A stretch of 63,062 nt of DNA, the filler included, from Psammoneis japonica (lineage: Eukaryota), in NCBI GenBank assembly GCA_008632985.1. It is 2 parts of 2 records of this genome, joined end to end, with 100 filler letters (N's around TTAATTAATTAA, not from the genome) between each part and the next. Parts side by side here need not be neighbours in the genome. Positions count along the whole stretch, not along the records: positions 31,937 to 63,062 come from QPGO01000398.1; 1 more part is not named here. One strand, 5' to 3'. Below the pieces are notes generated by a model, which did no database searches, had not been told where the DNA came from, and worked only from the letters and a program-made list of their open reading frames with translations. Shown piece by piece: positions 31,937 to 63,062 of the stretch. A program made the translations under genes and the position numbers. How positions within the stretch are numbered: position 1 is the stretch's first letter; every line of letters begins with the position of its first letter.

Positions 31937-32901
31937 GCTGGGCAAAGGTGCAGCGGCACTTTAAAACCAGAGTTTGGTTTTTCAAACGGGGAGCAGGGAA
32001 GAGCAACTGCCACAGTCCCGCAGCTGGTGCCCCGCGGCAATGTCGGACTGCATCATGCCATTCTGGGAGGCACTCCAATTCTCACACGGCAGGGTGAGGG
32101 AATCTACGAAAGATTTCCAGGGCACCAGGAGTGAGAAAGAGAACAAGAAGGCGATCCTGCTTGGGGCAGTTTGCTCCATGTTGCCAATGATGACAACGGA
32201 GCTGGTCGAAAAGCACGGTTGGGGGGAAGACAAAAAGCTCACCCATCTCCACCACAACATGATCAGGGGGAAATGCCGCCGATTGAAAATGTTCGAATCC
32301 GTCGGAATGGCGCTGCATCCCAGGAGCAAGGTGCCAGTGACACTTGGCGGCAAAGAGTTCTATGACAGAAGGACGCAGCCCGCTTTGGCAGCGTTCATGC
32401 ACGACACAATCTCCAAAACGGCTGCGGACCCGTCGTTGAGGTTGGAGTCAGAGGGAGAGCAGACATTGCTGGCGCTGCACAGGAAAACATCCGAGGGCAA
32501 ACTCGCGATGCCAAACATCCTTGAACAGCTGCGCCTTTTGGCAGAGGATGACATGCCCACATGTTTTGGGGCAGGGCACATGATGGAAGGAGGGCTGCGA
32601 CATGAGCACCACGGATGTTCTTTGTCAAATTGCCGTGCAGATTGGTTGCGCAGAGAGAAAAACAATGTGGAAGGTCCTCCGCCAATTGCACCTGGTGGAA
32701 GACACTGAATCCGACAACGAAGACATGCACCACATTTTCGACAAAACATGACGTGCCATTCAGATGGCAGCCAGAAATGACAGCAACTCCGACTCCGACT
32801 TGTCATCATGTCGCAGATGCGACAAAGAAACGAGTGGTGGATGTGATGGCCGACCAACCATTCAAACGGCAAGCTGTGACAAAGAAACGAACAATGGATG
32901 C

Positions 32902-33165
32902 GAAGACTGACCAACCAGAAACAGGCAAAGGGCAAAGAGAGTCAATGCACTCAGTGACACCGACAACGACCAAGGCTGCAGTTCAGGGACATCGGATTCT
33001 CGCGGTGAGTCGGATGCCAACAACGCGGAGGAAGACCGACCAACCAGAAACAGGCAAAGGGCAAAGAGAGTCAATGCACTCAGTGACACCAACAATGACC
33101 AAGGCTGCAGTTCGGGAACATCGGATTCTCACGGTGAATCGGATGCCGACAACACGGAGGAAGAT
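32902..33165 (+). repeat. 129-bp tandem duplication (2 copies)
   Basis: gaagac(t/c)gaccaaccagaaacaggcaaagggc starts at 32902 and 33031. Confidence 0.9.
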
Positions 33166-34160
33166 TCACACACACGCAGAGATGGATGTGTGGAGATGCA
33201 GCACGTTTCCGGACACAGGGCAAAAAAGCAGAAATGCCAAGGAGACCCTCTCCACTCTTGGTCAGAGGACGACAGCAACAATGACAGGAGCAACGAAGGA
33301 GGCAGCACTGACGAAGCATCGGAGGACAATAGCTTCCACACATTGCACCACTTTAGACGGAAGGACAGTGGAGACATGCAATCAGGGCAGCAGCAACACA
33401 AAGGGAACATTGCACGCTCATCATCGGAGGATGAAAACAGCAGCTGCAGACGTGACAAGCTTCATTCCATGGGAGAGCATGGCAGGATGAGTTGTCTAAC
33501 TCAGAAAGAGAACAAAGGGCATGACACGGAGGGGGGGACGGAGCAAGAGGAGAGTGCGGTTTGTGGTGACAGTGATTCTCAAAACAGCTCCATTTGCAAA
33601 AATGGCACTCCGCACGGTTTGCAAAGGACAAGAATGATGGAGTGGGAAAAATTGTCAGTTGCAAAATCACACACAGTGGATCTGTTCGTGCACTCACAAA
33701 TGTGTCGTGGCCAAAATCCGCCAAAAAAAAACGCAAACCATTTCGCCACAAAACAAGCAGTTCGTGAAGTTGCTTGGAAGACATTCGCTTTCGTTGACAA
33801 GCGGTGATTGTCGAAATTGACAGTCGACACACACCGTCCTGCTGCGAAGCAGAAGAAACTGAGCGGCCATGGCGGCTGACGCTTGCAACCCAAAAAATCG
33901 GGAGATTTCTTGTGTGGGTGAATTCACGCAGAAAGCATGCCGGGAAGATCTGATTTCCTAAAACAGTGCTGATTTGGCCCACGCAGTTCTACACGATGAT
34001 TCTCTCAGAGGCGGCAGCAGAGAGAAGTGCGCTGAGTGCAGTGGTCTGCATGGGAGGGAGGTTTGCGCAGGGAAAATGTGTGATGGAATTGCAGGGTTGC
34101 TGTGCGTGCCGTGCTGTGTGATGTGATTCGAGCGTCTGTCTGTCGAGGCAGGTCACGACA

Positions 34161-34485
34161 TTGCAAAGCCGCAGATTTTTCTTGCAGGGTGAAGAAATTT
34201 ACGATTCGAACGTCTGTCCTTCAAGGTGGGTCATGGCGTTGCAAAGCCGTAGATTTTTCTTGCAGGGTGAAGAAATTTACGGTGGGTCAGGATCGCGGGG
34301 GGGGGGGGGGGCAGACCGTGGAAGTCCAGCCGTCCATCCGTGGTTGAAAAGGCACCATGTGGTTCGCACGGCGACTCGCTCGATTCATCACTCCCAGCAT
34401 CTGACCCCCCCTTCCCTCACCTCGTGGAGACGGACGGGCACACCGCAGAAGTTGCAGCATTGCAAAGCCGCAGAATTTTCTCGTG
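34161..34485 (+). repeat. Short direct repeats (ttgcaaagccgYaga...), 3 copies, with a poly-G tract
   Basis: Copies at about 34161, 34239 and 34460. Confidence 0.8.
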
Positions 34486-35990: not shown

Positions 35991-38900
35991 TGGAGTGGCA
36001 AGAGGGAGAGCGACAGAGGTGACCAGATGAACGTGGTTTTTAGAGAAGTCATCATCGCCAGAAAAACATGTGGACTTGCACAGACAGATGGGCATTTTCG
36101 ATGTTCGGCACTCCAAAGCAACACATGGCAAAAACAAAAGGGGGGGTTCAGGGGACAGGCGTTGCAGAAGCCCACATGGCATGAGATGCAAAAGGGTTTC
36201 TTGCATCAATGGCAGCATCTCTTTTGATGAAGTTTCTTGTCGGCCGCCGGCACGTCAACAATGGTGAATGGACCACGGATCTGGTTGTGAAAGGGTCCCT
36301 CCACACCCTGATGCGGCATGTTTAGGGCGTCGAGCTCTGTGCACCATCCTTCTGACCTGGCAAACAATTGGGGGTTGATGAAGCACCGGCGATGCGTCGC
36401 GACGGCTTGCACCCTTGGAAAGTCACCCCAAGCATTGTTTCCTTGCCTGATGCAGTGGGTGCACAACTGTTGGTTCTGGCCAACTGCATGGCAATTCATG
36501 CAGTTGCCCTCCCGTGGCAAAAGTGTGCTGACAGTGTCTCGACTAGTCCCACAGTTGGTTGGGTGGCAAATGACATTGCGGGCAGATGGAAGCACGCAGT
36601 GAGTGTTGTTCTGCAGACTCTCCCTCACCTCCATGAGTTGGGAAAGAGTGCAATCCTCCACAGGATTTGGAAACAGCCCGTCCATGGCTGGCAAAAGGGG
36701 GGCTTGTCTTAAATGTTTTGATCACGCAAAGGCCGAACGTGATTTACAGAGCGTTGAATTGCCACGCCATTCTTGTTTTCGACATGCAAACGATGCTCGG
36801 TCATTTGCGCTGTTGTCCCGGTTGCATCACGGCGGCGGTTTTGTCGTGTGTTGCAACGTGGATTTCCAGGGGCTAAGTGAGGATCGACGTTGTTTGCAAT
36901 TGGCACACGGTCACCCAGGGAACAATCTGCAATGGTGCGATGATTTTCCTTTGATTCGGATTCTTCCCCACTGTCTTCGCTCGTGCTGCTTGACCTGCTG
37001 TCGATTGACGCAGAGGATGATTCTTCGCTGCTCAGCTGACTGCCGATGGATGATTCCACGTCCCTCGATTGCTCTGTGAGTGACGAATCTTCCCACGGCC
37101 GACTTTCCTCGTCGCTAGACTCCTCTTCGCTAAACTCCTCTTCGCCAGATGAATGGCACCCCCTCGTTGAATGGTGCAGCCGAGACAACTGTGATGCTCG
37201 ACTGACACAGTTGCCCCAGATTTGTTGGTGAGTGATCCCAATTCGCTCTCAAAGGGAGCAGATGGCTGTGATTTGAACAACAGACCATCGCACGCGGGGG
37301 CCTTCTCCGGTCGACATTTCGGACAACTGCTGGATTGAACTGTTCAGTTGGGCCACCAGAACAGTGAGGCGGTCGCCTGGTCTCCTGACTTTGTCTCTGC
37401 AGGAACGGATGGCTTGATTGCGATTGCTCATTTGGAGCAATGAACTGCAGATGGATTTCTGGAGCTGAGGGTTCCACAAAAATTTGTTCCAGTGGGCACT
37501 GAAAAATGCATGTGGGCTCAAGTTTGCGTGCGTCACTGGGTTGTGATTCCAGCAGACACGATCAAAAATGGGATCTCCGACCAACTTCGATCATCCTGAC
37601 CAACTCGTCCTGTCCTTTAGATGTGCCAGTGTGACGAAAACGCTGTCAGTGCAAAACAGGTTGAGAGACAACCAGTGAGTTTGCAATTCAGTCAGAAAAA
37701 ATGACAAACCATCGATCGTTAGAGAGAAATGCGCCAACACAAAATCCACCGGATGTGAGGCATTCCTCTGAATTCAGTCCAAAACTTGCATTGCATTGCT
37801 TGACAACGGACAGGAACCCGCACTGCCCGGGGTGGATTGCATGGGCCAATGTGCAATTCATGGTCACAAACAAATCTCACATTGGAGGGCAACTGGTGAG
37901 TTTGCCGTTCAGTGAGCCGAGTCAAAGTAAAAACCAACAACACAAATCCACTCGACAGCTGTGAGGCACTCTCTCAAAATCGGATGAAAACTTGCATTGG
38001 CGGACGATGGATCCTTTCCGAGGGAGGGGACGGATCGTTTCTGTGGGAGGGGGGCTCTGTGCACAACATGAAATCAGTGACGGTGGTCAACGACATCTTG
38101 CATTGGAGGAGTTGCGATCCATTTCACGGATCACATCTTCAAGCTCCTGGGAAATTCCACTGCCTTCCAAAGTTTGAGAATTAATTTCATCGAGGTGCAG
38201 AGCAGAGGAAAAGTCTGGATCATTTTCAACGTCACCCAAGGGGGAGGGATTGGAGGAGTGGGAGACTCCCCACCCTTCTGAAGGTGTGGTGCACAAAAAA
38301 CCGGCTTCATTGTTTCCAAACTCACCATGGAGAGAATTTTTGGCAGCCTGGCCACTGTCTCCAACAGTGTGCGCCAAACAAACGGCACAGGCGCTGAAAG
38401 AAAACAGGGCAAGAAAAAACACAATGCTGAATGGTGTGAAGCGTGCGTGCAGACAAAAATGCCACTGTTGTCAAGGTGTGAGTGTAACTCACCAGTCGGT
38501 GGCAGGCGCCCAGTCACCCAACGGCGTGAAAGCCACGGGGCGCCAATCACAACACCCAAACTTCTCAACCATGGAGCAACCATCAGGGAAGAGCAAGTGA
38601 AGATCCTGCCAGCACATGAAAACGTCACAGATGCCCATGTTGAATCGCTCGAGACTCACGTCACACAGCAATCCCTCGGCGCCATTTAAACCGTACATTT
38701 GAAGACCAAAATCGTTTGTCAGACATCTCACAATGGCGGGGTGGGCGCCTTTGGGTGTTCCCATGGTGCACATCTGTTTCGCAGCACCTGAGGTTGACAC
38801 AGGACAAACAAGGTTGCAAAGATCAGGGTGTGGCTTCACACCCAATCCAATTTGTGCACAAATTTGCACAGTGATCATCAATTGGAACTCAGCACCATCG

Positions 38901-39469
38901 GCGCCATTTCCTTCCCATTTCCTGACAATGTCTTGGAGTTTTGGCCTCAATCGATTCATGATTGAAAGAATCGGTTCCAACATTGCCATTGATCCAAGAC
39001 ATGGCTTCACGCACCCCCCATTCAATGTCATCCATCACCAAGTTCAAACGCTTGCCGCATTTGCTGATGAAGACATCTTCAAAATTGAGCCCGGGAGACA
39101 AAAGCCTGGCATTGTTTCTGTCACCAGCAATGCTTCCAAACTTGGCCATCGCCTCACGATGACAGCAGATGATGGGGTCTTGTGTTGAGATGACGGCCTG
39201 CACGTCACTGAGAATGTGGCAAAAGCACAAAAAACCAGTCTGGCAACCCGCCAGGATTGCCAAGCGAAGGGCTTGGCTGACACCGATGTGGGGGAGCAAA
39301 TGTGAGACAGCAGTCAACGCAAGAGAGAGAAAGAAGTCCCTCCCAACGGCAAATGGATGAATGATGCGACGTGCCATGACCGCGGGTGGCTTGACTGTGT
39401 CACCCATCTGTGACTTCCTCCCGACATTTTCTTCCGTCGGTCTTTTAGCTCGTTGCAACCACACAAGGA

Positions 39470-41662
39470 GTCCATGTAACCACCGATGCGAAACGTGCCG
39501 TTGGTGACAAGCTTGACAGACCACGCATGTCCTTTTGAGTCGTTGACGTTTGCACACACGGTGCTGGTCTTTGTGCATCCCGTTTTGATGCAATTGAAAG
39601 GGTCAGTGTGATCTTTTGTGTTCTGGGAACGTGCATTTCGGTCATCGTTCTCGTTCTCAATCTGGTTGGCTGGCGTCGGCGAGTCTCATTTGTTCCTGTG
39701 CTGCAACGATGGGGGCTCTGTCGAGTGGTCAGAAGCATTGCGTGGGATGGTTTCGTTCTCATCAGCAAACGGCAGCGTGGCTGTGTCGTCGGCTGACGTC
39801 GGTCCGCAGTCGTCCTTTGCTGCTTGCAAAGACAAACACTTGCGCTGCAGGGTGACAATTTCTCTTCTGAGGACAAGGGCGCCAATTGCAGCCCTGAGCT
39901 TGGCTGCACATTGGCTGTCTTGAGCTTCGTTGTTGAAAGGTCGTTGGTTTTGAAAACCTGCGACCTCTGTCTCGTCCTCGCATCTTTGCATGGCGTCAAG
40001 CAGCTCCGCTGTCATTCGTTGGACAAGTTTGGGGATCTTGGACCAAACATCCATCCCGCGCAAAGAGCCGGGTTTGTGGTCAGGTCCGATCTCCACTTCT
40101 TCGGGGAGAGCCTTGACGCAATTCTGTCTGGCGCGACCAAATTCGATGCGGCAACGCATCTTGCTGTCGCGGGGATCCCTGCTTTTGTCAGGGCTGCCAT
40201 GCTGCAGAATTGCTCTGAGAATTGATGCAAAATTCACCCGCAAAGGACCAAAGTGTTTTTGAAAAATCCGGTTGGAAAACCTGAGAAAAGAAACCTTGTC
40301 CGTCAAGTGGGACGAAGCTTCCGTGGAGTGCGTGGTGGTGACTGCTGTCTCCTTCATTGGGTTGCTGGGCGGAAACCCATTGAAGAAGCCGTGATGGCAC
40401 TGGCGCAGATTGTCAATGAGGTGGCAATCGGCGGTGGTGTGGAGGAGAACGTGATGCACTGTGTTGGGTGGCAGGCCACCTGTGGGTGGTGTTTTCTCCA
40501 AAACGAGAAGGTGGGAGTGGCATCTCTTGACATCTGCAGGGCTGGACAGCAGGCAAGAATCAGGGAAACGGATTTTGAGTTCATCCTCTTCAAAATCATT
40601 GGGCAAAGACGGCAACACAACTGCTGGAGCTTTTTTTTTACGCCAAACCTTGCGCAACTTGGCCAGCTGTTCCTCGAATGTGGGCAACCTTTCCAGGGGG
40701 TCGGAAGAAAGAAGCGGCATTTCCTGCATTGATTCCATGGATGGGGTGGCCTGATCGGAACAGAGAGAGGCTGTGGCTTTGCATTTCCGTGCATTGCAAG
40801 TGATGGACGGGAGCACGCTGCCAAATCCCCTTTTCTTGTGGTGCAACGCCCAATCACGAAGCCGGGCTTGCCACATGGCCTCGCAACAATCACGGGCACG
40901 TTTGCTCGTTCCTGAATTGTTGGCGGCGGCGTTGCGCCGACAACATCTGACGCTGGCCTGAATCTTAGAATCAACGTGGTTGGAGTGCAACTGAATCCTC
41001 TCGACGGTCATCATTTGATTGCTCAAGTGAGCTTCCCAGTCGTTGCCTTTCTCAGCAAAGAGCTCCTTCACGAAAACGGGGTGGGTGACAGGGTTGTCAT
41101 CCTTGGTGGTCTCGCAGTGAGACAAGGCCAGAAAATTGTTCACAAAAGAAACGCATCTTTGCTCAGTGTCGCAATCGCGATGGAGCCGACAAAGCCAGTG
41201 CTCCGGGTTGTTGTTTTTTTCTGGGACATGTGGTGGAATTTTGTTGTGTGGAACAAGACATCCAACGTGCAGGAGTTGAAGATGTGTCATCAACTTGTTG
41301 GCAAAGCTTCTTGGTTGGATGTGGTTGACCAAAGGCTCACCGGAAAAAGGATCCAATGGATGAGGATCGTTCAACAAACCAAACAAGAGAAACACCTTCG
41401 CCATCATGTTTGTTGCCATTTCTGATTCAGAAAAAGCACCCGCCGATGTCATTTCTTCTGTCACGGGCACTCTTCTGTGCTCCAATTTGTGGGCTTTCCC
41501 ACCAGCCTGTTTTGAGTGACTCCATCCTTTTGCCTGCAACATTTTAACCAGAGTTTTGTGTCCGAGTTCAAACGCCACGATGCGGCACACCGACAAAAGC
41601 TCAGAAAAAAATTTCGCCGAGATTTGCGATGCTTCGACCAAACGTGCGGGAGCGCGAGCCAA
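39470..41662 (-). pseudogene. Large degenerate ORF of unknown function with a downstream HTDPFN segment
   Basis: 658-aa ORF with no Tyr; downstream segment HTDPFNCIKTGCTKT...DSKGHAWSVKLVTN starts at 39610. Confidence 0.4.
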
Positions 41663-44600
41663 TTGGCTGAGGGCTCACACGTTGAATTGCGGTGGAACAT
41701 GCGCTTTCTTCTTGCCGATTCGATGTGGACACGGAGTTTTGCCTTTTCACTCTCGTCAGTGATCCCCAATGTGCTCGAATTCATCGTCTTTGCCCTGCAA
41801 CGGGGTGTCGGCGGCGGGTGAATCGGAAGGTTCCTCGTTTCAGCACAGCGCCATGGTGGGGTGCTGTTTTGGGCGGTCAACTCGAATGCAGGGCATGGGC
41901 GGTTTGACGTAGAAAAGATGCCGGGTGGGAAGATTGGTGGAAAGATGTGCTGAATTCGCCCATGGAGTTCCACACGCACAAAAACTGCAACAGCGGCGAG
42001 GACAACACCAGCATGCATGGTTTGGGGCGGGGAGACAACACGCAAAAAGGGAGACGCACGTGTGTACGAACAGTGCCAAGAAAGGTGCACAAAAGCAAAG
42101 CAGATGGTGAGTTCGTTCGCCTGTGACGCACGCAACTTGAATTTAGAGCATTGCAAACATCGGGGCAGTTGGAAAATTGCCGTTTGTTTGATGTGAACCA
42201 AAATTGGGACATTCATTGTTGCACATCATTTGTTGAGAATGGCAAAAAAACCATTGCACATCATCTGCAGTTTGATTCCCCGGGAACAAAACTGCAGGAG
42301 GCTTTTTTCTGGCTGCTGGCAGGGCCCTGGGCGGAAGGAAGAAAGAAGTTGACGGCCCATTTTCTTTGGTGAAAGGAAGGCATGAATGCAAAAACTGGGT
42401 GTCCAACAATGGCAACAAGCCACCGGGAGGGTTGAGTGCATTGACAAGGTGCCGTTCAGTGCCTCGGAGGAGAGAGATGGACGGAAACCAGAGCATGCTG
42501 CAAAAAGATTCTGGGGGGCACGACAATGCAGGGAGGAGAGTGCCAAACATCAATCAACCTAAATGTGGTTTGCTTGTTGCCATCACAAAAAATGCCAGGA
42601 GCGGTGGGGAAGGTTTGGAGGAGCTGTTGTTCTGTGCGGGAACACGGGTGTTGGCAAATGGTTGTCTGGTGAGCGAAAACAAAAAGTGCAGCACACGTTG
42701 AAAACCCACGTGAGTTTTGCACTGTCACAAAAAAAGCCCATTGAGAAGCACGGCAACCAGCATCACCCACACACGGGTGTGAACACTGCGCTCCACACGG
42801 TGTGATGCTCTGCACAAATCCAGCGTGTCACACGCGTGTGCGCTGCGTGCACACACTTGAGCTCAGTCGCGCACACGCTTGGGAGGGCCTGCCTTGGCAG
42901 AGCGTGATGCAGTCTTTGGCTTCTTGTTGGGGATGGTCAAGGAAGGCTCTTGCATGGTGAATGTGAACAAGAGAACAAAACGTGGATGTGTGAGAAGACG
43001 GATGCACAAGAAACATGCTGCAACAAGGAGGGGGGGGGGGGGGGGGCATGTGCCGTCGTACAAAGAACAGGTGCCGTCTTTGCGGGTCCTCCCAATTTTG
43101 CATTTGGTTTTGGATTGACACTCTCATTTGTCATCATCATCCAAGCAGTCGGCCCTCTGATCACGCATTCTGCATTGAAGGATTGTGAGCAACTTGCTGC
43201 ACTTCAGTTGCATGCCAGGTTGTTCCTTGGGACAGCACTTCCCAAATTTGTGGCTCAACATGGAATTTGTTTTTTCTTCGTGCGCCTCTCAACGGGCAAG
43301 GGAATCACCATCCATTGTCACTTTGTTCTTTTGGAGTGAGGTGTTCCTCAATGTTGTCCGCCTGAGAGCCCGGGTTGTTGGAATTGCACGGCACTAGAAA
43401 GCTGTTGACGAACAGGCGCCACTCCTTTTGCGATTGGACATGGCAAAAAATCTGCATGAACCAGCAGTCGAAGTCATTTTGTTTGCACTGAACGTGACGC
43501 GTTGCGATTTCGGTGACAAAAAATGCACCGTGAAGGTCTTGTGCACGGTCGTCGATCAGTTTTTTGAGATTGTTGCACTTTGAAAACCGGGGACAAGGCT
43601 TGCTGGAAACGGGATCATTCAGGTCGTCACCGGCAACAATCGCACAGACAAATTCTGCCATGGCTTTGATGTTGCGGCGAAGATTCGTGCGGCGCACTTC
43701 TTGTTCAACTGTCTCTCCGGGCATTTTTGAGAAACAGAGAGCTTTGTCCAAATTTCGACAATGAAGGTGGCATTGACCTTTCAGCGAGCGGGATTTCTTC
43801 AGGGACCAACCACGAGTCTTGATGCAAGACCAAATGTCAGGGCATCCAAGAGTTTTCCCGACGATGTTGTTGGTGTGGACAACTTCCGCGACATGTGGAA
43901 TTCAGTGTAACTTCGGCTTGTGGCAAAGGAAGGGAAGAGCGAGAAATTGCGGAGAGGGAGTCCATTGTGTCGATTCCAAAAACTGCTTTTTGGATGCACG
44001 CATTGAAGCTGTGCTTTTGAGCTTGGGACCAAACAACTCCATTCCAAAACCATTGGCAAAATGTTCCATGTCATCAAAATCACATTCATCAGGAAATTGG
44101 AAGGAAGGATCGGGGTCGACCTCGTCATGAGACGGGGTGAAGTCATTGACCGCCATGGCAAGAGGTCAGTTGTGATTTGCGCAGAAAGCACGTGGATGAC
44201 AACAGCACATGCTCAGGTGGAAAGCAGTTTGGGGAGAGGATGTGCTGTCATGAAATGCGCAGACAGTTGCGCATGCAGAGCGAGTGCCCAAATCAGGGTA
44301 GAGAGCCATGCACAGAAATTCTGGGAGGTGCTGGAAAAATGATGCTGGAAATGTGCATGGGGGAGACTGGAGCGCACCGAACAGCAGAGGATGCACCAGT
44401 CAACACGGTGGGGTGTGTGTGATGTGGAGCTGTTAAAAACCAAAATCAAAGATGTCGGTTCAATGCAAATGTGACAATGAGATCAAATGGAAATTTACAA
44501 AATCCAATGAAAGCAAAAATCAAATTAAATTGTTGAGAATGATCAAACACAAACAGATGACAAATGTCAGCACAAAACGGATTTAATGAGTTCAGTGTGT

Positions 44601-44753: not shown

Positions 44754-45150
44754 GACGGGTTCCAGTCCCAGGTGGGACTCCGTGTGACATTGGGCCCTCA
44801 GAATTCTGCGTGCGAGCTCCGCAGTAAATTTGTGCTGCAATGAAAATGTGAATGATTGCCAACAGAAAAAGAGGCAATTTTGCGAATGTGTCTCCTCCTT
44901 CATGCTTGCTGCACATCATTGACAGTTTGCCCGGGTGTGCTCTTCAGACATTAAAGAATGCACCCAGTGTGTTTTTGTTCTCACAAATGTTGAAAATAGA
45001 AAGCCTTTGGCTTTGCAAAACAGGGAGCATGAAACAATTTCGTAGAATGTGACATGCAGAAATGTGCGTGCGCGACATGCGACGCGATCCAAAAAACCAT
45101 TGATGTCACAGTGCAGCAGTGCGAGGTCCCACCCAGAGCTGGAACGCGTC
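44754..45150 (-). mobile_element. MITE copy 2
   Basis: GACGGGTTCCAG...GGAACGCGTC; TSD AAAG. Confidence 0.9.
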
Positions 45151-45623: not shown

Positions 45624-46012
45624 GACACGTTCCAGGTCTGGGTGGGACCTTGCACTGCTGAACTGTGACATCGACAGTTTTTTGAATCGTGTCGCATGTC
45701 GCGCACGTGCATTTCTACGTGATTTTGGCAAAATTTTGTGTGGTTTTACAGCACATTTGTCAGGCTGTCCATTGAACAACTTTTAATGTTTTTTTCTTCT
45801 GCGCCATTCTCGAGTGTCTTGAGAATGGCGTGGGGCAGGCGTGTTGTCCAAAACTTCGAGTGCGAACAGGGACAGATGCACCACAAACTTGGCCATTTTT
45901 TTTGTGTCGAAGACAAACACATCCATCAACCAGAGTGCGAACTGCAGAGCTTGCACACAGAATTCTGCGGGGCAAATGTCACAAAAAGTCCCACCTGGGA
46001 CTGGAACCCGTC
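45624..46012 (+). mobile_element. MITE copy 3
   Basis: GACACGTTCCAGG...GGAACCCGTC; TSD GGGG. Confidence 0.9.
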
Positions 46013-47937: not shown

Positions 47938-47944
47938 CACCACC

Positions 47945-50032
47945 ATGGCACCATCCTCCAGCACCAAACGCACTGGCAAGCCCAAATCGGGCAAGGGCTC
48001 TTCTGAATCACAGAAGCACAGCGCCACCGCGACGCCCTCACCATCTCATGGAGCGCGTCCCTCAAAAGAAGGGCGGGAAAGTCGACACGGCTCTTGATGA
48101 ACTCATCGAACATGCGCCCAAAAAGGCGCCGCGTGATGATGATGTCGACCGTCAGAACCCTGACGGCAATGCATTTAAGGACGATGACATGCGTGACAAT
48201 GACAGCATCGCAAAACTCACGTCAGTGACGAACTCGGATGACATGGACGTTTCTGACAACAACAGTGTCTCGTCTGACAAGTCCAACAAGTCCAATGCGG
48301 AAACCCCCCGCAAGCGCACCAAAAAGCACTTGTCCAAGCGCAAGTGTGAGAGGCTTGCCGCTCACATTGACAAAGTCACTGCAGCTGCATGCGCTGACAA
48401 GCGCATTGCACAACTGGCCAAACCGCTAGAAGACAAATTGACTGTGTCCCCTGAGTCATTCTTTGACTTCCTCTTTTGTCTTGAGGAATGTCTTCAGAGC
48501 TCCCCTGTGTTGGCAAAAGTCATGAAGCTCGACAACGGCATGTCTTTGACAAAAGGCTTCACCAAAGTGGTGCTGTGGGGTGTTGAAACCGACGAGGTCA
48601 TCGCCAAGAAATCCGATGACCAGACATCCATGCATTTCATGCAACGTGCGCTCAAGGCCCTGCTTGTTGCCTCGCATGACAAAGAGCTGCATCAGGTGAT
48701 TGTGTCTGATGAAAATGTCATGGATCATCTCCACAAGGACGGTGCAATGTGCTTCTGCCATGGCTTCAAGCAGCTGTTCCCGTTGCCCGAGATGCATGTC
48801 AACGGCATCCAGACAAAATTGTCCAAAGTTTCTCTCATTGACGATTGCAATGGCAATGTCAGCGCGTGCACGCATGAGTTCAGGCAGCACCTCTGCCTGG
48901 TTCACAAGCGTGACGACACGCTTGAGTGCACTCTTGTCGAGAAAGCCTTCAACAAACTCCAAACCGCCGCATGCAAGCCATTCGCAGCCAAGATGGCCCA
49001 GCATGAGACTGATTGGATGCACAAGAAACACGTCAAATGGACCGTCGAGACCCTGTTCAAGGAAGCCAACAGCCTCCAGATGGCGCTTGAGGCACAGAAT
49101 CTTTGGGACAAACCTTCCACGGAAGAAACCCAGTTCATGGCCATGCTGGCTCAGAACGAACAGCTCGCCAACTTCGCGCAGCAGATGACGAAGGTCGCCT
49201 CTGCTTTCCAGTCGTCCCTGCAGCAGAGTTTGCGGTGCAAGCATCGCAACAACCGTTGCAACCGCTGCGACAACCGCCGGGGACATCAGGGTCATGGTGG
49301 TTGCGGAAACGGTCGTGACCACGCACCTCGCCGTGGCTCCCCTCCGTTCTTGCACATTGAACCCGAGAACAAAGAAGCGGAAAAGGAGTGGGGCAACAAG
49401 AAGTGGCACTGGTGTGATGCATGCAAGATGCACTCCACTCGCCACAGCACCGTCACCCACAACAAATGCATTGCCTCCAACAACAACAAGAGTGGCAAGC
49501 GTCCTGGAAACGCACAACCCAAGTCTGGATGTGACCACAAGCACCAGCTCAGAACGAACAGCTCGTCAACTTTGCGCAGCAGATGACAAAGGTCGCCTCT
49601 GCTTTTCAGTCGTCCCTGCAGCAGAGTTCGCGGTGCAAGCATCGCAACAACCATTGCAACCACTGCGACAACCGCCAGGGACATCAGGGTCGTGGTGGTT
49701 GCGGAAATGGTCGTGACCGTGCACCTCGCCATGGTTCCCCTCCGTTCTTGTGCATTGAACCCGAGAACAAAGAAACGGAAAAGGAGTGGGGCAACAAGAA
49801 GTGGCGTTGGTGTGATGCATGCAAGATGCACTCCACTCGCCACAGCACCGGCACCCATGACGAATGCATTGCCTCCAACAACAACAAGAGCGGCAAGCGT
49901 CCTGGAAATGCGCAATCCAAGTCTGGATGTGACCACAAGCGCCAGAAGGCTGGTTCCAAGATTCAGCAGGATGTCGACAAGCTGCAGAAATTTGCTGCAA
50001 ACTTGTCCCTCTCTCAATCTGTTGCCTCTTGA
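47945..50032 (+). pseudogene. gag: Copia gag, degenerate
   Basis: ORF 48048-49586; knuckle-like WHWCDACKMHSTRHSTVTH; internal duplication. Confidence 0.75.
49149..49944 (+). repeat. 398-bp tandem duplication of the gag 3' part
   Basis: gctcagaacgaacagctcg at 49149 and 49547. Confidence 0.92.
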
Positions 50033-50099
50033 ACAGAAGAGGGGAGAAGGCAATTGGAAAACAACCAATGTTCCACACTGCTTAGGATCCGGTTTTGTT

Positions 50100-53000
50100 C
50101 ATGCACTTTGCCTGGATCGGTCAAAATCAAAGCAAAAGTGCGAGACTTTCACCACAAGTTTTAAAATTGCACCAACAGAGACATGGTCTTGTGAGCGAAA
50201 TTGTTGATGATGCCCGCGCATTTGAAACAGCTCTTGAAAACCGCGGACGCTTCATCCGTGGTGGCCATGTGCAAGCAAGACCTCACTCGACATCTGCATT
50301 TGTTGACAAACGCGATGCACCACAACTGGTCAAAGCACATGAGACTGCTGCTGCCAGAACTCCTGAGGAGAACAAGGAGTCACCAAACACTCTGGCAGAG
50401 CATGCTGCACATTTGGCAGATGAGGTGCCAACCCTCACATCCGACGAGACACATCTCATCATTGACTCGGGTGCTTCCACCACAATTTGAAACAATGAAA
50501 ATGACTTTGTTGGTTGCATGCGACCCATCCAAAACTTGGACTTAAAGGGTGTTGCATCTGGCCCAGCCATTGAGGGCATTGGCATGGTGAGATGCGGCTT
50601 TGTGGATGACAATGGCAACAATTTTGCCATTGATGTCAACAATGTGCTGTGTGCACCCACCTGCCCGGTTCATCTGCTGTGCCCTCAACAAGTGGCAGCT
50701 GCCAGCCCCAATGAGGACACAGATGGGTTCTTTGCAAGGGGCAAGTCCACGACAATGATCTGTGGACAACATCGCAAAACCGTGCAATGCCATCACGAGT
50801 TGAATCTGCCGATTCTTGCTGCGGCTCCAGGCTTTGGCAATTTTTGAGCTTTCTGCTCTGACATTGATGCAAATGGCAAACTGCCACCTCGCACCAACAC
50901 AAAGGCATGTTCGGCTTCGCATCCGGCTTTTGCTGTCACAACAAGAAAGCAAAAGGCGGCGGCCAACACAAACAAACAACAGACTTCTTACAATCAGCAG
51001 AGCAAAAAGTCAAACGAAAACAAAAAGAAACCAAGGCCTGCTCAGCCTCAACAGGACCTGCCAGTCCACGAGGGGGGCACAGAAGACAACCTGCTTCCCA
51101 TCCAATGCGACATGTTGAAATTGCACCATCGCATGGGACACGTTGGTTTTGAACAAATCAAAGAATGGGCCAAGATTGGTGCTGTGCCAAAACGCTTTGC
51201 AAAATGCAAAGCTCCAGTCTGCAAAGCATGTGCTTGTGCAAAAGCCAAGCGCAAGGCAGCTCAACGTGGTCACCGCATCAATGAATGCCACGACAACGCT
51301 CCAGGTCAAGGAGCATCTGCGGATCAACTTGATGCGAGTCATCCGGGCCCACTTCCCACTTCTCGTGGCAAACCAACTGCTTGCAGGTGCAAACATTGCA
51401 CTCTGTGGATTGATCACTTCTCTGGATTTATCCATCCTCACATGCAAGAGTCCACTGGAGGAAAAGAGACCTTGACTGGCAAAACCAAGCTCGAGAGATT
51501 CACAGCAAAACACAATGTAAAAATCGAGCACATTCATGCCGATTGACGGCACATTCGCCGCCGCAGAGTTCACACAACACTGCGTTGAAAACAAACAACG
51601 AAACTCCTTTTGTGGAGCAGGAGCACACTGGCAAAACGGCATCTTGGAATGCTGCACAGGCGTCATCACCTCGATGGTGCGAACACACCTGTCACACGCT
51701 CAGCCCCTCTGGTCTGATGCAGCAACCATGGAATTATGGCCATTTGCCATCAGACAGGCTGTCAATTTCCACAATGTGTGCATCCGAAAAGGAAAAGAGA
51801 AAAACCCCTGGGAGCTGTTCACTGACAAGAAACCGCCATTTCAAATGGACGATTTTTGCGTGTGGGGGTGTCCTGTTTACATCGTGGACAAAAGTGTCCA
51901 AGGCGGGACTCACATTGGAAGATGGGCCGAACGGTCATGCCAAGGGGTGCACGTGGGACATTCGCTGGACCATGCCAGCAATGTCCATTTGGCATGGGAC
52001 CCCACAACCAAACACGTCTTGCCACAATTTCATGTCACATTCGACGAAAACTTTGCAACAGCAGTGCCTGGAAAGACATCAAGCAATGATCTTGAGGCAG
52101 CTCTTGAAAAATCATTTGATGACCATGCAAACACTTGGACTCACCATGATGAACATTTCGACCACAATCAACATTGTTTTGAAAAGAATGTTTGGAGCAA
52201 GGACGACTTGCTCTGCAAACATGGTGTTGACCCTCAAGCGTGCAAACAGGCGCAAAAGACCAACCACAAATCATGAGGGAGAAAAAGAGACTGTGCTGGA
52301 CAAGAAAAGCCAGACGATGATGACACACCATCTGAGATTCTGCCAGCTGTTGATGTCTCGGCCGACACACCGACACATGTGGCAGCTGCACTGGCAGACA
52401 CAACAATGCCAGCAGAATCGGCACACGCTGAAGCCTCCGAGGCTGCGCCACCTGCAGCAGGAGGTTCTGTGTCGGAGAGAGCAGAGGGGACCCACTCATT
52501 GTCAAACCGACTGCTGTCAGTTGACAATGCAACACCGTTGATTGTAGAAAATGCAGTCACCCAGGGCCCAACTGTGGCAACTCCAGAGGATGCTGCAACT
52601 TCTTCGCCAACGAAAGAAGCCCTCCAACATTCAAACAATGAAGCAGACTGTGCTCGTCATCAACTTCATGAATGCAAATGCCAAAAAGGTTTAGATGACG
52701 ATGCGACTTGCACAACAGCACAGAACAATGCAAAAAACAGCAACTCACCTGATGCGAACGCGCACATCACAACACCTCTGTGCCACAAAGAAGTTGCAGC
52801 TGAGCCACACGAAGAGCTTGCACATCTGATGGCACTTGTGGGTTCAGCAGACAATGACATGCTTCTCGACGAAGACACATGGAATGAATCCAGTCCACTC
52901 ACTTTCGAAGCAGCGGCGCCAGGAGACGTCGACACCCTGACCCAGGGCCAGATGAAAAGAGCACCAGACCGTGCCAAATTTGAAAAAGCCCAAGTTCCAG

Positions 53001-54520
53001 AAACACAAGGGCTGGCAGATGTGGATGCATGGGAACACATGCCACGTTCTGAAGTGCCAAAAGACCACCGGCTGTCAAGTGCAATCTGGTCACACAAAAG
53101 AAAAAGGAAACCAAGTGGTGAGCTTTCAAAACACAAAGCCAGAATGTGCGTCGACGGTTCCAAACAACAACGTGGAATGGACCATTGGGACACATTCGCC
53201 CCAGTCGTCGCATGGAGTGCGGTGTGACTGACATTGTGTCCAGCGGCAATCGCCGGTCTGAAAAGCAGACAAGTGGATCATGCGCAAGCATTTCCACAAG
53301 CAGAGCTGGAAGAACCAGCATGTGTGAGACTCCCAGAAGGGTGGGAAGTGAAAGACAAAAATGGAAACATCATGCCAGACATGGCATGCAAACTGAAAAA
53401 GAACTCACGCGGCATGAAAACTGCTGCACGAAACTGGTTCCAGAAACTGTCAAAGGGGCTGGAACAATGTGGTTTCAAGAAATCAAAAATGGACCCATGT
53501 CTGTTCATCAGAAATGACTGCATCATCTGCTTGCACACAGATGATTGTTTGGTTTTTGCTCCAACGAACTACATTGTCACTGCACTCATGCAAGAACTCA
53601 AGCAAGACGAGCTTCAACTTGCCGACGAAGGCGATGCACCCGCTTTCCTCAGTGTGGATGTCGCCAATGCCGTCGACGGCAAAATCCACATGACCCAGAC
53701 AGGTCTTGTTGATTCCACGTTGAAAGACCTCGGTCTGAGGTCCCACAACAATGAACCATTGCAGAACAGGCCACAAACAAAGGCTGCTCCAGCAGCACAA
53801 ATGCTGCACCCTGACACAGACGGTCAGGAGCATCAAGAACCGTGGAACTGCCGGTCTGTTGTCGGAAAGATGAGCTCTCTGGCACAAATGACTCGACTGG
53901 ACATTGCAGTGGCAGCGCACATGTGCGCCAGATTTTCCAACTGCCCAAAGGCATTGCACGAACAAGCAGTTGAGCGCATCGGACGTCATCTGCTGGCAAC
54001 TTCAACAGACGGCATTGAGCTCCGGCCGAAAGGGAAATTCTCCCTGGGTGCATGTGTTGACAGCGACTTCGCGGGAATGTGGCACAGAAATTTTGCCCAT
54101 CTCCACGAATCGCACCTGTCATGATCAGGGTGTGTTGCCACATTTGCAGGCTGTCCAATCTGTTGGAAGAGCGAGGCTGAACTCGTTGCACTGTCACAGT
54201 GCCTGAGAGAGCCACTTCCAATGAGAGCTGTGCCAGAAGAACTGTCCAAAACCATGGATTTTGAACTGGCAAATTCACACATTGAATCTGGTTCTCTGGA
54301 AACTCGTGTGCTTCCACACAAGCTTCCCCCGTCCACAGCGCATGAAGACAAAACAGGATGCACTGCACTGGCCACCTCTGACAAGCAATGCAGAGCTGGA
54401 GCCAAGCACACAAGCATCAAATGGATGCACTTTTGGGACCACACAAAACGTGGTTCTGTGAAGAAGGCAGTGAAAGTTGGCGACACATTGAGCAGTCCAA
54501 ACAGACTGCTGCTTCACTCA
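50100..54520 (+). pseudogene. pol: Copia pol (protease, integrase, RT, RNase H) with stops and frameshifts
   Basis: IIDSGAS; LHHRMGH...CKAC; HIHAD, QNGILE; HKARMCVDG, DTFAPVV, CLHTDDCL; ACVDSDFAG, HEDKTGC, KHTSIKW. Confidence 0.92.
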
Positions 54521-54710
54521 AAAACAGCATTTTTGGACGTGTGCAAACAGCATTTTTCGCTTCGCTTGTGCTCGAAGCACGAGGGAGAGAAACACCCTGG
54601 ACACACCCCAGACATTTTCCAGGAATGCTCTGGAGGCTGTGCGCAGATGTTGCTGCATCGGCTTGGCTCCATTGCTGGCATTGGTCAGAGCCCTCGTTGA
54701 CACGAGGGAG

Positions 54711-54880
54711 TGTCACGTTCAGCTGGAGCTCACAGGACAGATGGACAGACGGACGGATGGACAGACGGAGCTCATTCGCACTGACTCAGAGAGATGATGT
54801 CGAAGATTCTCTGACGCAGCTGGCTCGTGGACCACAGAACAGTCGCAAGCCTCTTTGGCTCACAACATCCACACAAGACA
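54711..54880 (+). repeat. 3' LTR
   Basis: Preceded by PPT gagggag and followed by TSD ccctt. Confidence 0.95.
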
Positions 54881-57456: not shown

Positions 57457-57852
57457 GACGTGCTCCAGCTCCAGGTGGGACCTCACACCACTGAACTGTG
57501 ACACAGTCATTTTTTGTCATCCGCCGCATGTTTCGCGCGCAAATTTCTGCGTGTTCTGTTGCAAAAAATTGCTCCACACTGCCTGTTTTGCGAAGCCAAA
57601 GGCTTTCTGTCATCTGCGCTTGTGCCGACAAAAACGCGCTGGGTGTGTTCTTTGATGTCTAAAGAACACACCCGGGCATGCTGCAAAGAATGTGCTTCAA
57701 GTGTGGAGGAGGAGATGCGTTCGCAAAATTGCCTCTTTTTCTTTTGGCGATCATCCGTGCATGTGCTGCTTGGCAATTTTGCTGCGGAGCTGGCACGCGG
57801 AATTCTGCGGGCCCAGTGTCACAAAAAGTCCCGCCCAGGACTGGAGCCCGTC
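57457..57852 (+). mobile_element. MITE copy 6
   Basis: GACGTGCTCCAG...GGAGCCCGTC; TSD GGCA; empty site cactggcaggg in sister units. Confidence 0.9.
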
Positions 57853-60077: not shown

Positions 60078-61740
60078 TTTTCAAGGAAAACAAACGTGTC
60101 GCTTCAAGGAAAACAAACACGTCGTTTGAAGGAAAACAAACACGTCGTTTGAAGGAAAACAAACACGTCATTTCAAGGAAAACAAGCGTGTCTTTTCAAG
60201 GAAAACAAACACGTCATTTCAGGGAAAACAAACACGTGGTTTCAAGGAAAACAAACACATCTTTTCAAGGAAAACAAACATGTCTTTTCAAGGAAAACAA
60301 ACCTGTCAAACAAGCGTGTCATTTCAAGGAAAACAAGCACGTCGTTTCAAGAAAAACAAACGTGCACTTTCAACAAAAACAAACATGTTGTTTCAAGGAA
60401 AACAAATGTGTTTCTTTTGAGAAAAACAAACATGTCTTTTCAAGTGAAACAAACACGTCTTTTCAAGAAAAACAAACACGTCATTTCAAGGAAAACAAAC
60501 GTGTCTTTTCAAAGAAAACAAACACGTCGTTTCAAGGAAAACAAACGTGTCTTTGCAAGGAAAACAAACACATTGTTTCAAGGAAAACAAACACGTCGTT
60601 TCAAGGAAAACAAGCGCGTCATTTCAAGGAAATCAAACAGGAAAACAAACATGTCGTTTCAAGGAAAACAAACACGTCATTTCAAGGAAAACAAACACGT
60701 CGTTTCAAAAAAAACACACACAATTTTTTTTGACAAAAACAAGCGCGCTGTTTCAAGGAAAACAAACATGATGCGCTCCAGGTCCAGGTGGGACCTTGCA
60801 CTGCTGAGCTGTGACATCGACAGTTTTTTGAATCGCGTCACATGTCGCGCACGTGCATTTCTGCGTGATTTTGGCAAAATTTTGTGTGGTTTCATGGCAC
60901 AATTGTCGGGCCATCCATTGAACAACTTTTGACATTTTTTTCTTCTGCGCCATTCTCGAGTGTCTCAAGAATGGCGCAGGGCAGGCACGCTGTCCAAAAC
61001 TTCGAGCGCGAACAGGGACAGATGTGCTGCAAACGCAAGCTTGGCCATTTTTTTGTGTCGAAGACAAATGTGTCCATTGGCCAGAGCACGAACTGCAGAG
61101 CTCGCACGCAGAATTCTGCGGGGCAAATGTCACAAAAAGTCCCGCCTGGGGCTGGAACCCGTCACATGTCTTTTCAAGAAAAACAAACACGTCTTTTCAA
61201 GGAAAACAAGCACGTCGTTTCAAGGAAAACAAGCACGTCGTTTCAAGGAAAACAAACACGTTGTTTCAAGAAAAACAAACACGCCATTTCAATGAAAACA
61301 AACATGTTGTTTCAAGGAAAACAAGCGTGTGTTTTTGAGAAAAACAAACGTGTTGTTTCAAGGCAGACAAACACATGTTTTTAAGAAAAAACAAACTTTG
61401 CAAGGAAAACAAACGTGTCTTTTCAAGGAAAACAAGCACGTCTTTTCAAGGAAAACAAGTGTGTCTTTTCAAGGAAAACAAACATGTTGTTTCAAGGAAA
61501 ACAAACACGTCATTTCAAGGAAAACAAACACGTTGTTTTGATGAAAACAAACATGTTGTTTCAAGGAAACCAAACATGTTTTTTCAAGGAAAACAAGCAT
61601 GTCTTTTCAAGGAAAACAAACATGTCTTTTCAAGGAAAACAAGCGTGTCTTTTCAAGGAAAACAAACACGTCATTTCAAGGAAAACAAACACATCATTTC
61701 AAGGAAAACAAACACGTCGTTTCAAGGAAAACAAACACAA
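60078..61740 (+). repeat. Approximately 22-bp minisatellite (TTTCAAGGAAAACAAACACGTC-like); also at 56810-57125 and 58895-59225
   Basis: Dozens of caaggaaaacaa cores. Confidence 0.92.
60770..61163 (+). mobile_element. MITE copy 7
   Basis: GATGCGCTCCAGG...GGAACCCGTC; TSD ACAT. Confidence 0.9.
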
Positions 61741-61839
61741 GACTGGCCAGACAGAAAGGCACACCCGCGCGCTCTCGAGCTCTCAAACTTTGTTTTGAGA
61801 AAAACGCGTTGAAAAGAATTTTGGCCAACCACAAACATT

Positions 61840-62250
61840 TCAAGTGCGCACATGCAAGACACCGCAAATCACTCTGATGCTTTGCAGACAGCACTGCGCA
61901 ATGTTCGCGTTCCTGTCTGCAAGAAGCCCACTTGCTTTGGCAGTTTTCTTTTTCTCAGCGTTCCGTGCCTTCTGCTTGTCGCTCTCTGACTGCTTTTGCT
62001 TCCACTTCTCTCTCTTGCTTTTTGCAACTCGATTGAGCACGTCGTCTCCAGGACGAGGGCACATCTCGTCTTTGTCTTCCTTGTCCAGAAGCGGCCGACA
62101 CTTTGTGCAAAGCTCCACCTTCTTGATGTCCTTGACCCCCGGAGCTGTCAAGGCACGTGGTCTTGTTGTTTGAAGTCTTGCTTTCCCATCATCCATTGAC
62201 TCACTCTTCCTCTTTTTGAGATCCTCGCTGGCTTCTGGCTGGCCGTCCGC
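61840..62250 (-). pseudogene. C-terminal fragment of a probable DNA-transposon protein
   Basis: PGVKDIKKVELCTKCRPLL...MCPRP (restorable to VELYTKYRP) followed by a basic tail. Confidence 0.35.
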
Positions 62251-63062
62251 TGCTTTCATGATTTTGTGCCTTCGGCAATTTTTGGCCATTGTGGTTTTGT
62301 GCCCTTTTCCACCTTGGACCCTTTCTGATTTTTTGCCCTTGGCAGCTTTGTGCCCTCAGAAACTGTTTTGCGCCCTCAGTCATTTTGTGACCTCAGCAAT
62401 TTTGTGCCCCTGCCTGGTTTGTGCTCTTTGTGATTTGGCGCCCTCAACAGACATTTTTTGTCCTTTTTGATTTTGTGCCCTTGGCGATTTTGCTGGTCAC
62501 AACAGAGCTGCAGAACAACAAGAACCTGCCCAATGAAGAGCGGGGCAAAGGAGAGAAAGTGCGCAAGATGACAAAGTTGGACCCAACAGCAGACTTGTTC
62601 CAGACTTGGGTGGCGCGCACATGCCCCTTTTCGCAGAAAAAACAACTTTTTAATGCTTTGTTCAACACCGCACATGTTTGACAAAATTGAATGTGTCAAT
62701 GGCTTTTGGGCAAAACAAACAGAACAAACTCAAACAAACAAACAGCCAAACCGGCCATGGCTTTCAGCGACCATGACGGCCCACTTTTTTCAGCCTTGTG
62801 GAAAATTGAATGTCATGACCAGGATCTCCGCACTTGACACAGTCTGTGTCATCAACAACAACAGTGAAAATGCTTGTTGAAGGCTGCAGCGCGGCACAAC
62901 AATGCCAAATCTGTCAGCAACAACAATTGAGCCTCTGTTCACTCACAATTTGCCTCTGAGGACCATTTCTTTTCTGTCACCATGTGCATTTCCTCAACAT
63001 GTTCGACTGATTCAAGCACATCAATCGTTTGTGCCTTCTGAACCGTGAAAAATGGTCCGAAG

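Follow-up and report, generated by a model that had tools for sequence, protein, structure and literature searches.

What could remove nearly every TpA step from one stretch of a genome and leave the neighbouring genes untouched? This question is raised by a 63,062-base sequence of the diatom Psammoneis japonica (the window), in which transposons, satellites and gene fossils are almost devoid of TpA and rich in TpG and CpA. The window consists of two separate contigs, A (1-31836) and B (31937-63062), which were artificially joined by a non-genomic spacer (31837..31936, N44-TTAATTAATTAA-N44, with N runs at 31837-31880 and 31893-31936); because the spacer is artificial, the 31836/31937 boundary marks no chromosomal transition, and features that appear to lie at it are artificial as well. 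An initial annotation of this DNA had proposed that A is converted to G within TpA, on either strand and specifically in repeats. We conclude, with a probability of about 0.8, that these sequences were shaped by a real process that acts at the DNA level, is specific for TpA and is confined to DNA of transposon type; this figure excludes the identity of the enzyme.

Contig B (31937..63062) comprises 31,126 bases of transposon, miniature inverted-repeat transposable element (MITE) and satellite DNA, and contains 94 TA, where about 1,945 would be expected from base composition and 1,097 at the contig A ratio. The observed/expected ratio (o/e) of TA is 0.048, that is 0.05 in 31937-63062 versus 0.54 in 1-31836; TG reaches 1.53 (1.14 in contig A) and CA 1.56 (1.16), and CG stands at 0.70 versus 0.99. 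When 1.5-kb segments were scored, TA o/e was 0.01-0.12 in 20/20 segments of contig B (starts 33001-61501) and 0.23-0.67 in those of contig A (n=21, starts 1-30001), the lowest two of which (0.32 and 0.23) are those lying over a TA-free island. All 16 NTAN contexts are depleted in contig B, while AA (o/e 1.35) and TT (1.51) are enriched. These results bear out the annotated near-absence of TA and abundance of TG/CA over some 31 kb; the accompanying claim that the genes in 1-31836 have normal TA holds outside the island (0.564) and fails within it (13161-15554, 0.025). Within the 63 kb, repeats do not resemble genes in their TpA ratio (0.048 vs 0.564).

The least depleted context was TTAA (contig B/A ratio 0.40), which holds 21 of the 94 residual TA, a small number, with sites for instance at 36709, 44433, 50161 and 62650; the excess may reflect a context preference of the process. 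At the other end, ATAT, ATAC, GTAT and TTAT show contig B/A ratios of 0-0.03, with ATAT, ATAC and GTAT gone, ratios that are noisy with 94 residual TA.

The direction of the change can be followed in a complete Ty1/copia long terminal repeat (LTR) retrotransposon (47311..54880, plus strand, TA o/e 0.037), which is inserted in a 17-bp satellite, carries LTRs of 170 bp each (47311-47480 and 54711-54880) and is flanked by the 5-bp target duplication CCCTT (47306-47310 and 54881-54885). Its Pfam matches, to gag_pre-integrs (E 2e-5), SH3_retrovirus (E 1e-7) and RVT_2 (E 3e-16), are in copia order, and it is 51% identical to a relative, P0001, over 1,030 alignment columns. The pol region is spread over three frames with 5 in-frame stops, two of which align with Arg in P0001 (the rest with Thr, Gln and His) and three with Arg in a second relative, P0002 (the rest with Thr and Ser); the reverse transcriptase motif, YTDD in the family, reads HTDD. 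The Tyr content of copia relatives is normal, with a median of 3.4% among 55 proteins. For polarisation, the intact relatives P0001 and P0002 served as reference at the positions where both agree. The element is identical to them at 516 of these 726 positions and differs at 210. It retains Tyr at 1/29 positions, Trp at 17/17, His at 24/25 and Lys at 27/32, and all residue types except Tyr are retained at 43% or more of the conserved positions. The 29 common Tyr positions are now TGY (12), CAY (12), CGY (2), TTT (2) and TAC (1); at the 39 Tyr positions of P0001, Tyr survives at one and His or Cys is found at 30. A within-codon TA>TG/CA/CG change explains 58 of the 210 differences, including V>A 14, Y>C 12, Y>H 12, I>T 6, L>P 6, L>S 4 and I>M 3, and CG>TG/CA explains 17, including R>C 6, R>H 2 and R>stop 2. 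Outcomes at Tyr codons of the coding strand are 12:12 and 16:20 for TG:CA; the two outcomes are equally frequent.

The loss of TA is not a trait of the copia family, as judged from 79 related metagenome loci. Their TA o/e ranges from 0.38 to 1.02 (median 0.72), so that the relatives are not equally TpA-free, and at the Tyr positions of P0001 their medians are 50% for Tyr and 6% for His plus Cys (maximum 12%). No TA-free copia was found among the 79 loci, in which the lowest 1-kb segment had an o/e of 0.16 (L069).

The LTR pair shows where the process acts. The two LTRs differ at 21/170 bases, which resolve into 6 TG<>CA doublets, 2 TA<>TG, 5 CG<>TG/CA, 1 other transition and 1 transversion, so only two differences are background substitutions. 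Since LTRs are identical at integration and these now differ by TG<>CA doublets, the process acts after integration, in place. Across 12 repeat pairs (2,941 columns) we counted 52 TG<>CA doublets, 75 CG<>TG/CA and 13 TA<>TG/CA differences, along with 55 other transitions and 70 transversions.

Two further observations concern the copia element. A 398-bp tandem duplication within its putative gag frame (49149-49945) carries 17 CG<>TG/CA differences and 2 TG<>CA doublets; being nearly free of such doublets, it arose after TA had been exhausted. Along 50593-54389, the TG and CA outcomes at former Tyr codons form 13 runs where 18.8 are expected (P 0.03), a mild clustering that hints at strand-coordinated events and from which we draw no conclusion on processivity.

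A MITE family present in both contigs provides a reference that still bears TA. The contig A copy (14218..14608, plus strand, 391 bp), whose terminal inverted repeats begin GACGCGTTCCAGGTC, is unmutated, with 29 TA (o/e 0.93) and a CG o/e of 1.53. Six copies lie in contig B: 46423..46818 (+), the least mutated, with 8 TA (o/e 0.28); 44754..45150 (-), which has terminal repeats in common with the contig A copy, with 4; the full-length 45624..46012 (+) with 3; 47542..47937 (-) and 57457..57852 (+) with 1 each; and the full-length 60770..61163 (+) with 0. TA counts in the family are therefore graded, as 29, 8, 4, 3, 1, 1, 0. When the two full-length contig B copies were compared with the contig A copy at its 29 TA sites, 45624-46012 had TG/CA at 21 and TA at 2, and 60770-61163 had TG/CA at 23 and TA at none; outside these sites 58/333 and 61/333 columns differ. 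At 7 sites one contig B copy has TG and the other CA, for which ancestral TA is the sole single-step explanation.

The process is confined to the element even within a gene-rich contig. The TA-free island of contig A (13161..15554, minus strand) is a gene fossil that sits among ordinary genes and is split by the MITE at 14218-14608; without the MITE it has 3 TA in 2,004 bases (o/e 0.025) and a CG o/e of 0.73. The edges of the TA depletion fall within about 100 bp of this 2.4-kb element. Homology to the protein P0176 (688 aa, Tyr 2.3%; 46% identical) spans 13059-15408 on the minus strand, and the Tyr positions of P0176 have become His 7, Cys 3, Phe 2 and Leu 1, with 3 gaps; this count sets aside 3 Tyr matches that lie where the alignment extends into the MITE. 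Its sequence suggests that the island is possibly the fossil of a Crypton-type tyrosine recombinase: the language-model look-alikes of P0176 are NDC10_II, Phage_integrase, DUF3504 and DUF3435 clusters (scores 0.89-0.90), which we take as a lead only. A Pfam scan of P0176 returned no family at E<=1, and sequence searches of the PDB with P0176 and P0178 gave chance-level matches only. A search at the island edges for CryptonS termini (TATGG or its converted forms) found CATGG at 15400 and 15547 and CCACA at 15506, which is uninformative. In the available part of one article (PMC3212892), CryptonS elements are documented for a single diatom.

A third substrate is found at 38534..41856 (minus strand). 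It is a frameshifted and hypermutated gene fossil, whose large protein product has a predicted TET/JBP-like 2-oxoglutarate (2OG)-Fe(II) dioxygenase domain, and it contains a 662-codon open frame (39689-41674) with 57 relatives in a representative library. A second, partial copy, corresponding to the N-terminal domain of the same family, lies at 43338..44189 (minus strand). In the fossil, the 17 Tyr of the relative P0177 (over its longer aligned segment) are replaced by His 9, Cys 4, Arg 1, Phe 2 and Leu 1, with Tyr 0. The HxD motif, conserved in the consensus of the TET-like family, is still legible here as HTD. A structure model of the conserved domain, built from the relative P0181, had a mean confidence (pLDDT, predicted local distance difference test) of 81.2, and its top three matches among 48,161 chains were TET2 (Z 9.0, root-mean-square deviation 4.5, 203 aligned), NgTET1 (Z 8.7) and CcTet (Z 7.6), followed by FTO, ALKBH3 and CMD1. 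The first 39 matches listed are 2OG-Fe(II) dioxygenases or uncharacterised proteins, except for a short helical match at rank 37. An initial model of 210 residues had reached a Z of only 4.5 with TET2, and the longer model was needed; neither model had a Foldseek match in the PDB at E<=0.001, and Pfam, Tet_JBP included, gave no hit at E<=0.01 in the 13/13 family members scanned. On the modelled structure, the conserved domain of this family is closest to the TET-family double-stranded beta-helix fold. Transposon-borne TET/JBP genes are described for fungi in the available part of one article (PMC12730594); our literature searches found no description of such genes in diatoms.

The shift from Tyr to His or Cys, polarised by relatives, is thus common to three different elements, the copia element, the P0176-like island and the P0177-like fossil. 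It is the first of four independent polarised tests, the others being the MITE copies, the LTR pair and a mass balance given below, that uphold the proposed change of TpA to TpG/CpA by A:T>G:C on either strand. The substrates comprise an LTR retrotransposon, DNA-transposon-type elements (MITEs and possibly a Crypton-like fossil) and a gene fossil at single-copy depth. This last case modifies the proposal that the process is repeat-targeted: it does fall on transposon and satellite DNA and spares neighbouring genes, but 37000-42300 is as TA-free as the rest of contig B at a single-copy word depth of about 30 in a public sequencing run, X1. This segment may have been repeated in the past, and transposon-derived or silenced DNA is a better name for the target.

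The lack of TA accounts for the lack of Tyr and for much of the length of the open reading frames (ORFs). The long frames were described as Tyr-free and rich in Cys and His, and we found this for 39689-41674 (minus strand, 662 codons, Y 0, C 3.5%, H 5.1%) and for the putative gag frame 47892-49583 (plus strand, 564 codons, Y 0, C 3.5%, H 5.9%); the gag label itself finds no backing in Pfam, where that frame matches no family. A scan of 28 open frames of 31965-44212 against Pfam returned only sub-threshold DZR_2 and Utp14. Counted on both strands, TAA and TAG occur at 1.41 and 0.80 per kb in contig B versus 8.35 and 7.87 in contig A, while TGA is unchanged (19.7 versus 18.75); the mean stop-to-stop length is 44.4 codons versus 28.0, and frames of at least 150 codons number 64 versus 32. 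The conversion turns Tyr into Cys, His or Arg, Ile into Thr or Met, Val into Ala, and Leu into Ser or Pro. It is a missense-only inactivation, in which TAA and TAG are destroyed and new stops are impossible, and dead elements therefore retain long open frames.

Taking into consideration this pattern, which agent might produce it? In the mechanism that we tentatively place first, silenced or foreign DNA would be marked by chromatin, DNA methylation or small RNA; the marked DNA would recruit an enzyme, a TadA/ADAT2-type adenine deaminase, which would turn A into inosine at TpA on either strand, and replication would then fix inosine as G. A targeted deaminase of this type is favoured by analogy, at a chance that stays below one half, because there is a precedent in the chlorarachniophyte Bigelowiella natans and because of the sequence context of the enzymes, the natural tRNA substrate of TadA/ADAT2 being a U-A step (U33-A34). 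In the portion of the B. natans preprint available, 230/231 de novo mutations in integrated giant-virus and virophage regions are A>G/T>C, and its authors place all GC-biased changes on TpA, at a rate of about 6x10^-7 per site and generation, which exceeds background roughly 1,000-fold (bioRxiv 10.64898/2026.01.13.699255). The same portion reports hypermutation in 11/15 mutation-accumulation lines, an enrichment of reverse-transcriptase and DDE domains among TpA-depleted coding sequences, and an ADAT2-like gene as candidate enzyme (Mettrop et al. 2026, bioRxiv 10.64898/2026.01.13.699255).

Second in rank, and unlikely in our view, is a reaction that starts from thymine: a TET/JBP-type dioxygenase would oxidise T at TpA in silenced DNA to 5-hydroxymethyluracil or 5-formyluracil, which mispairs with G and yields T>C. 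At a palindromic TpA the outcome would be the same as that of A deamination, and the presence of a TET-like dioxygenase fossil in the hypermutated DNA would indicate that this lineage has, or had, such enzymes near mobile DNA. Yet the fossil is itself a victim of the process, its assignment as TET-like comes from a model, with no Pfam family matched at E<=0.01 by any of the 13/13 members, and no intact copy is known in the genome; moreover, the listings from literature searches that paired 5-hydroxymethyluracil with diatoms contain nothing tying this base to diatom DNA.

Third, and a little more doubtful still, the process might need no dedicated enzyme and be a by-product of heterochromatin, for example of error-prone or biased repair at TpA in late-replicating, methylated DNA. 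The loss of TA is accompanied by CpG depletion (0.70-0.73 vs 1.0), such DNA is probably methylated heterochromatin, and the uniformity of 20/20 segments of contig B fits a regional state. Against this stand the extreme specificity of the change, with 16/16 NTAN contexts depleted, and the sharp edges, within about 100 bp of a 2.4-kb element that lies in a contig of genes; only 11/15 lines of B. natans had the process switched on, according to the available part of the preprint, which suggests regulation. The known signature of Pol-eta, WA>WG (W being A or T), which the initial annotation had listed among its candidates, is disfavoured, since AA and TT are in excess (1.35 and 1.51) and 27/32 conserved positions retain Lys; at conserved copia positions Asn>Ser occurs twice, and Lys>Arg is outside the 40 commonest changes.

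An artefact of sequencing, base calling or assembly, caused by a modified base at TpA in repeats, is very improbable. Modified bases can cause systematic miscalls on some platforms. The TA-free sequence was, however, reproduced exactly by contigs of run X1 (word depth 29-31), which match 37000-39153, 39126-39989, 40280-40767 and 41204-41956 with 0 differing letters, more than 4 kb in all at a depth of about 30. A strand-dependent miscall would yield TG or CA according to the strand and would break the X1 contigs; in fact TG and CA outcomes alternate on a 10-bp scale, fixed outcomes differ between copies, and the changes sit within 17-18% of ordinary divergence. Other genomic copies in run X1 differ from the window by 547 transitions and 71 transversions, with adjacent T>C and G>A changes at 47466/47467 and 54397/54398. 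Two more public runs, X2 and X3, contain next to none of 38000-46000, and no RNA run was listed with this segment.

Editing of RNA or cDNA from A to I by an ADAR- or ADAT-like enzyme during retrotransposition, with the changes passed on to new copies, has next to no chance of being the explanation, even though enzymes of this kind favour a 5' U, according to the accessible part of the B. natans preprint (bioRxiv 10.64898/2026.01.13.699255), and copia is a retroelement. Editing of the sense RNA would give TG only, whereas the coding strand has 12 TG and 12 CA; LTRs that were once identical differ by 6 TG<>CA doublets; MITEs and the DNA-transposon-type fossil, which have no RNA intermediate, show the polarised change, with the satellites equally poor in TA; and a MITE that has TA in contig A has lost it in contig B. 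Taken together, the LTR doublets, the symmetric outcomes, the changes in MITEs and fossil and the graded MITE series exclude editing before integration. Selection against TA, for instance to avoid a TA-cutting nuclease or the insertion of a TA-targeting transposon, is just as hard to credit, since the sequences are dead (frameshifts, 5 in-frame stops, conserved Tyr lost, HTDD for YTDD), the conversions destroy protein function, and the selection would need to extend to junk as well as to satellites.

Two candidates outside these rivals were rejected. GC-biased gene conversion is not TpA-specific, and AA, TT and AT remain in contig B; a horizontal origin from a TA-poor donor is contradicted by the polarity of LTRs and MITEs.

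A mass balance between contig A (without the island) and contig B supports the conversion of TA. Counted per kb, TA goes from 37.9 to 3.0, CG from 58.0 to 43.8 and TG+CA from 140.2 to 192.6; the TG+CA gain of 52.4 roughly matches the TA+CG loss of 49.1. Decay of CpG, presumably from 5-methylcytosine (5mC), also acts on this DNA and feeds TG/CA, with a share of about 14 of the roughly 52 per kb gained; its direction is given by the Arg>Cys/His/stop changes, and it prevails among the differences of the young 398-bp duplication. Given the CpG o/e of 0.70-0.73 in contig B and the island versus 1.53 in the young MITE, the affected DNA is probably methylated, or formerly was.

Several points weigh against the conclusion that such a process acts on transposon-type DNA. 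In the mass balance, contig A stands in only crudely for the composition before the change. The rate of TpA conversion relative to background substitution, roughly estimated at the order of 10^2 or more from about 26/28 ancestral LTR TA site-copies converted and a background of about 0.6% per LTR, assumes that the converted LTR sites are half concordant and half discordant. Of the 21 MITE sites converted in both contig B copies, 14 share their outcome, so that some conversions were inherited and are not independent. The unmutated MITE within the TA-free island means either that the process is now inactive there or that the insertion is very recent. Run X1 has no recorded platform and may be the assembly's own sample, which makes its agreement with the assembly only partly independent. 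The palindromic nature of TpA makes A>G and T>C indistinguishable from sequence. Finally, the link to transposons comes from 63 kb of one genome.

The remaining features of the window frame these results. Contig A carries ORFs for a tRNA pseudouridine synthase (3488-4621), a leucine-rich repeat (LRR)-Roc(GTPase)-TIR protein of 1,370 aa (8446-12558, minus strand), a questin-oxidase-like protein (20853-22199) and an AAA_16/NACHT-like protein (24996-26093, plus strand). The LRR-Roc-TIR ORF contains ten 84-bp tandem LRR repeats (11392-12447), and both it and the separate AAA_16/NACHT-like ORF are diatom examples of immune-receptor-like architecture. Of the best 120 pseudouridine synthase relatives, 11 carry an organism name, and 11/11 are diatoms (among them Mayamaea, Seminavis, Thalassiosira, Cyclotella, Cyclostephanos, Stephanodiscus and Attheya), with a best named identity of about 42%; this places the source among diatoms or their very close relatives and sets it apart from Bigelowiella. 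A search with the questin-oxidase ORF was uninformative on taxonomy. An origin of the two contigs in different organisms was considered and rejected, since one MITE family occurs in both (76-78% identity) and a TA-free island is present in contig A too, which together tie both contigs to one genome. In contig B, 54890..63062 consists of satellite arrays with units of 17/34, 23/46 and 8 bp and of dispersed repeats, with 11 TA in 8,173 bases (o/e 0.019); the satellites are as TA-poor as the elements, and the direction of loss is polarised in the elements only. Within the diverged satellite lies a perfect (TTTCGCAT) x 31.8 microsatellite (57134-57387), whose units are 100% identical and suggest a recent expansion of TTTCGCAT; a shorter copy is at 59227-59280.

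How does this process relate to known systems? Repeat-induced point mutation (RIP) of fungi (Neurospora and others) changes CpA to TpA, raises TpA and creates stop codons. Both are dinucleotide-specific transition hypermutations of transposons with sharp limits that leave neighbouring genes intact, but the chemistry is opposite, as TpA is removed here and stops are destroyed, none being created. RIP is triggered by duplication; here, DNA at a single-copy word depth of about 30 (37000-42300), which may once have been repeated, is also affected. RIP (C>T at CpA) is excluded as the explanation by the ratios of TA (0.05), CA (1.56) and TG (1.53) and by the polarity from TA, in line with the initial annotation. 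That annotation was equally right that 5mC decay cannot remove TpA: deamination of 5mC acts on the same DNA (CpG o/e 0.70, Arg>Cys/His/stop) and also yields TG/CA, but it is a C>T change and covers only the share of the TG+CA gain given above. In animals, APOBEC3 on cDNA and ADAR on double-stranded RNA, which hypermutate retroelements and viruses, resemble the process as editing used in defence, and the U-A preference of ADAR fits the motif; they differ in acting on replication intermediates and on one strand, whereas here the integrated chromosomal DNA of elements other than retroelements is changed too, symmetrically on both strands. To our knowledge ADAR is confined to animals.

The closest parallel is B. 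natans, for which the comparison draws on the available portion of the preprint. Alike are the A>G/T>C change at TpA to TpG/CpA, on both strands, and its restriction to foreign or transposon DNA beside normal host DNA. B. natans is a rhizarian and not, as here, a stramenopile; its nucleocytoplasmic large DNA virus region has a Rho of 0.45, compared with a TA o/e of 0.05 over 31 kb here, where the end state alone is seen but the loss is far more complete; and its substrates are giant-virus and virophage inserts, compared here with an LTR retrotransposon, MITEs, possibly Crypton-like and TET-like fossils and TA-poor satellites. Judged by this footprint, the diatom case is a process of that kind in another lineage of eukaryotes. 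The initial annotation knew of no such description in diatoms; full-text literature searches indeed found none for TpA loss in diatom transposons, and a 2025 preprint on diatom transposons has 0 mentions of dinucleotide, RIP, hypermutation, deaminase or TpA, but the signature as such is described in the 2026 B. natans preprint, so far the one report of TpA-specific hypermutation of foreign DNA.

That the process is a defence system is something we infer, and we hold it at close to an even chance, though on the lower side, that diatoms have a dedicated, chromatin-directed DNA base-editing defence, a "reverse RIP" that converts TpA to TpG/CpA in invading DNA, kills transposons by missense only and leaves the frames open. 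Whatever the agent, the saturated end state in a diatom means that the phenomenon is not a one-strain curiosity, and its range of targets extends from integrated viruses to retrotransposons, MITEs and gene fossils of transposon type, which lie beside satellites just as poor in TA, in a group that has genetic tools and major ecological weight. The signature, namely a TA o/e close to 0, open frames that lack Tyr, and copies that differ by TG/CA doublets, can be used to screen eukaryotic assemblies. For annotation, gene callers may mistake such long, stop-free, Tyr-free ORFs for genes, and LTR dating overestimates age unless TA- and CG-derived sites are masked (here 19/21 differing LTR bases). 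If an enzyme underlies the process, it would be a naturally occurring editor of adenine or thymine in chromosomal DNA, of interest for genome defence and for base editing; at its boldest, the proposal would make this editor a natural adenine deaminase capable of acting on double strands, or else a thymine oxidase of TET/JBP type from the family whose fossil lies at 38534-41856. If such a defence is real, finding it in both a stramenopile and a rhizarian would imply either that it is ancient within the SAR (Stramenopila, Alveolata, Rhizaria) clade or that it was invented repeatedly.

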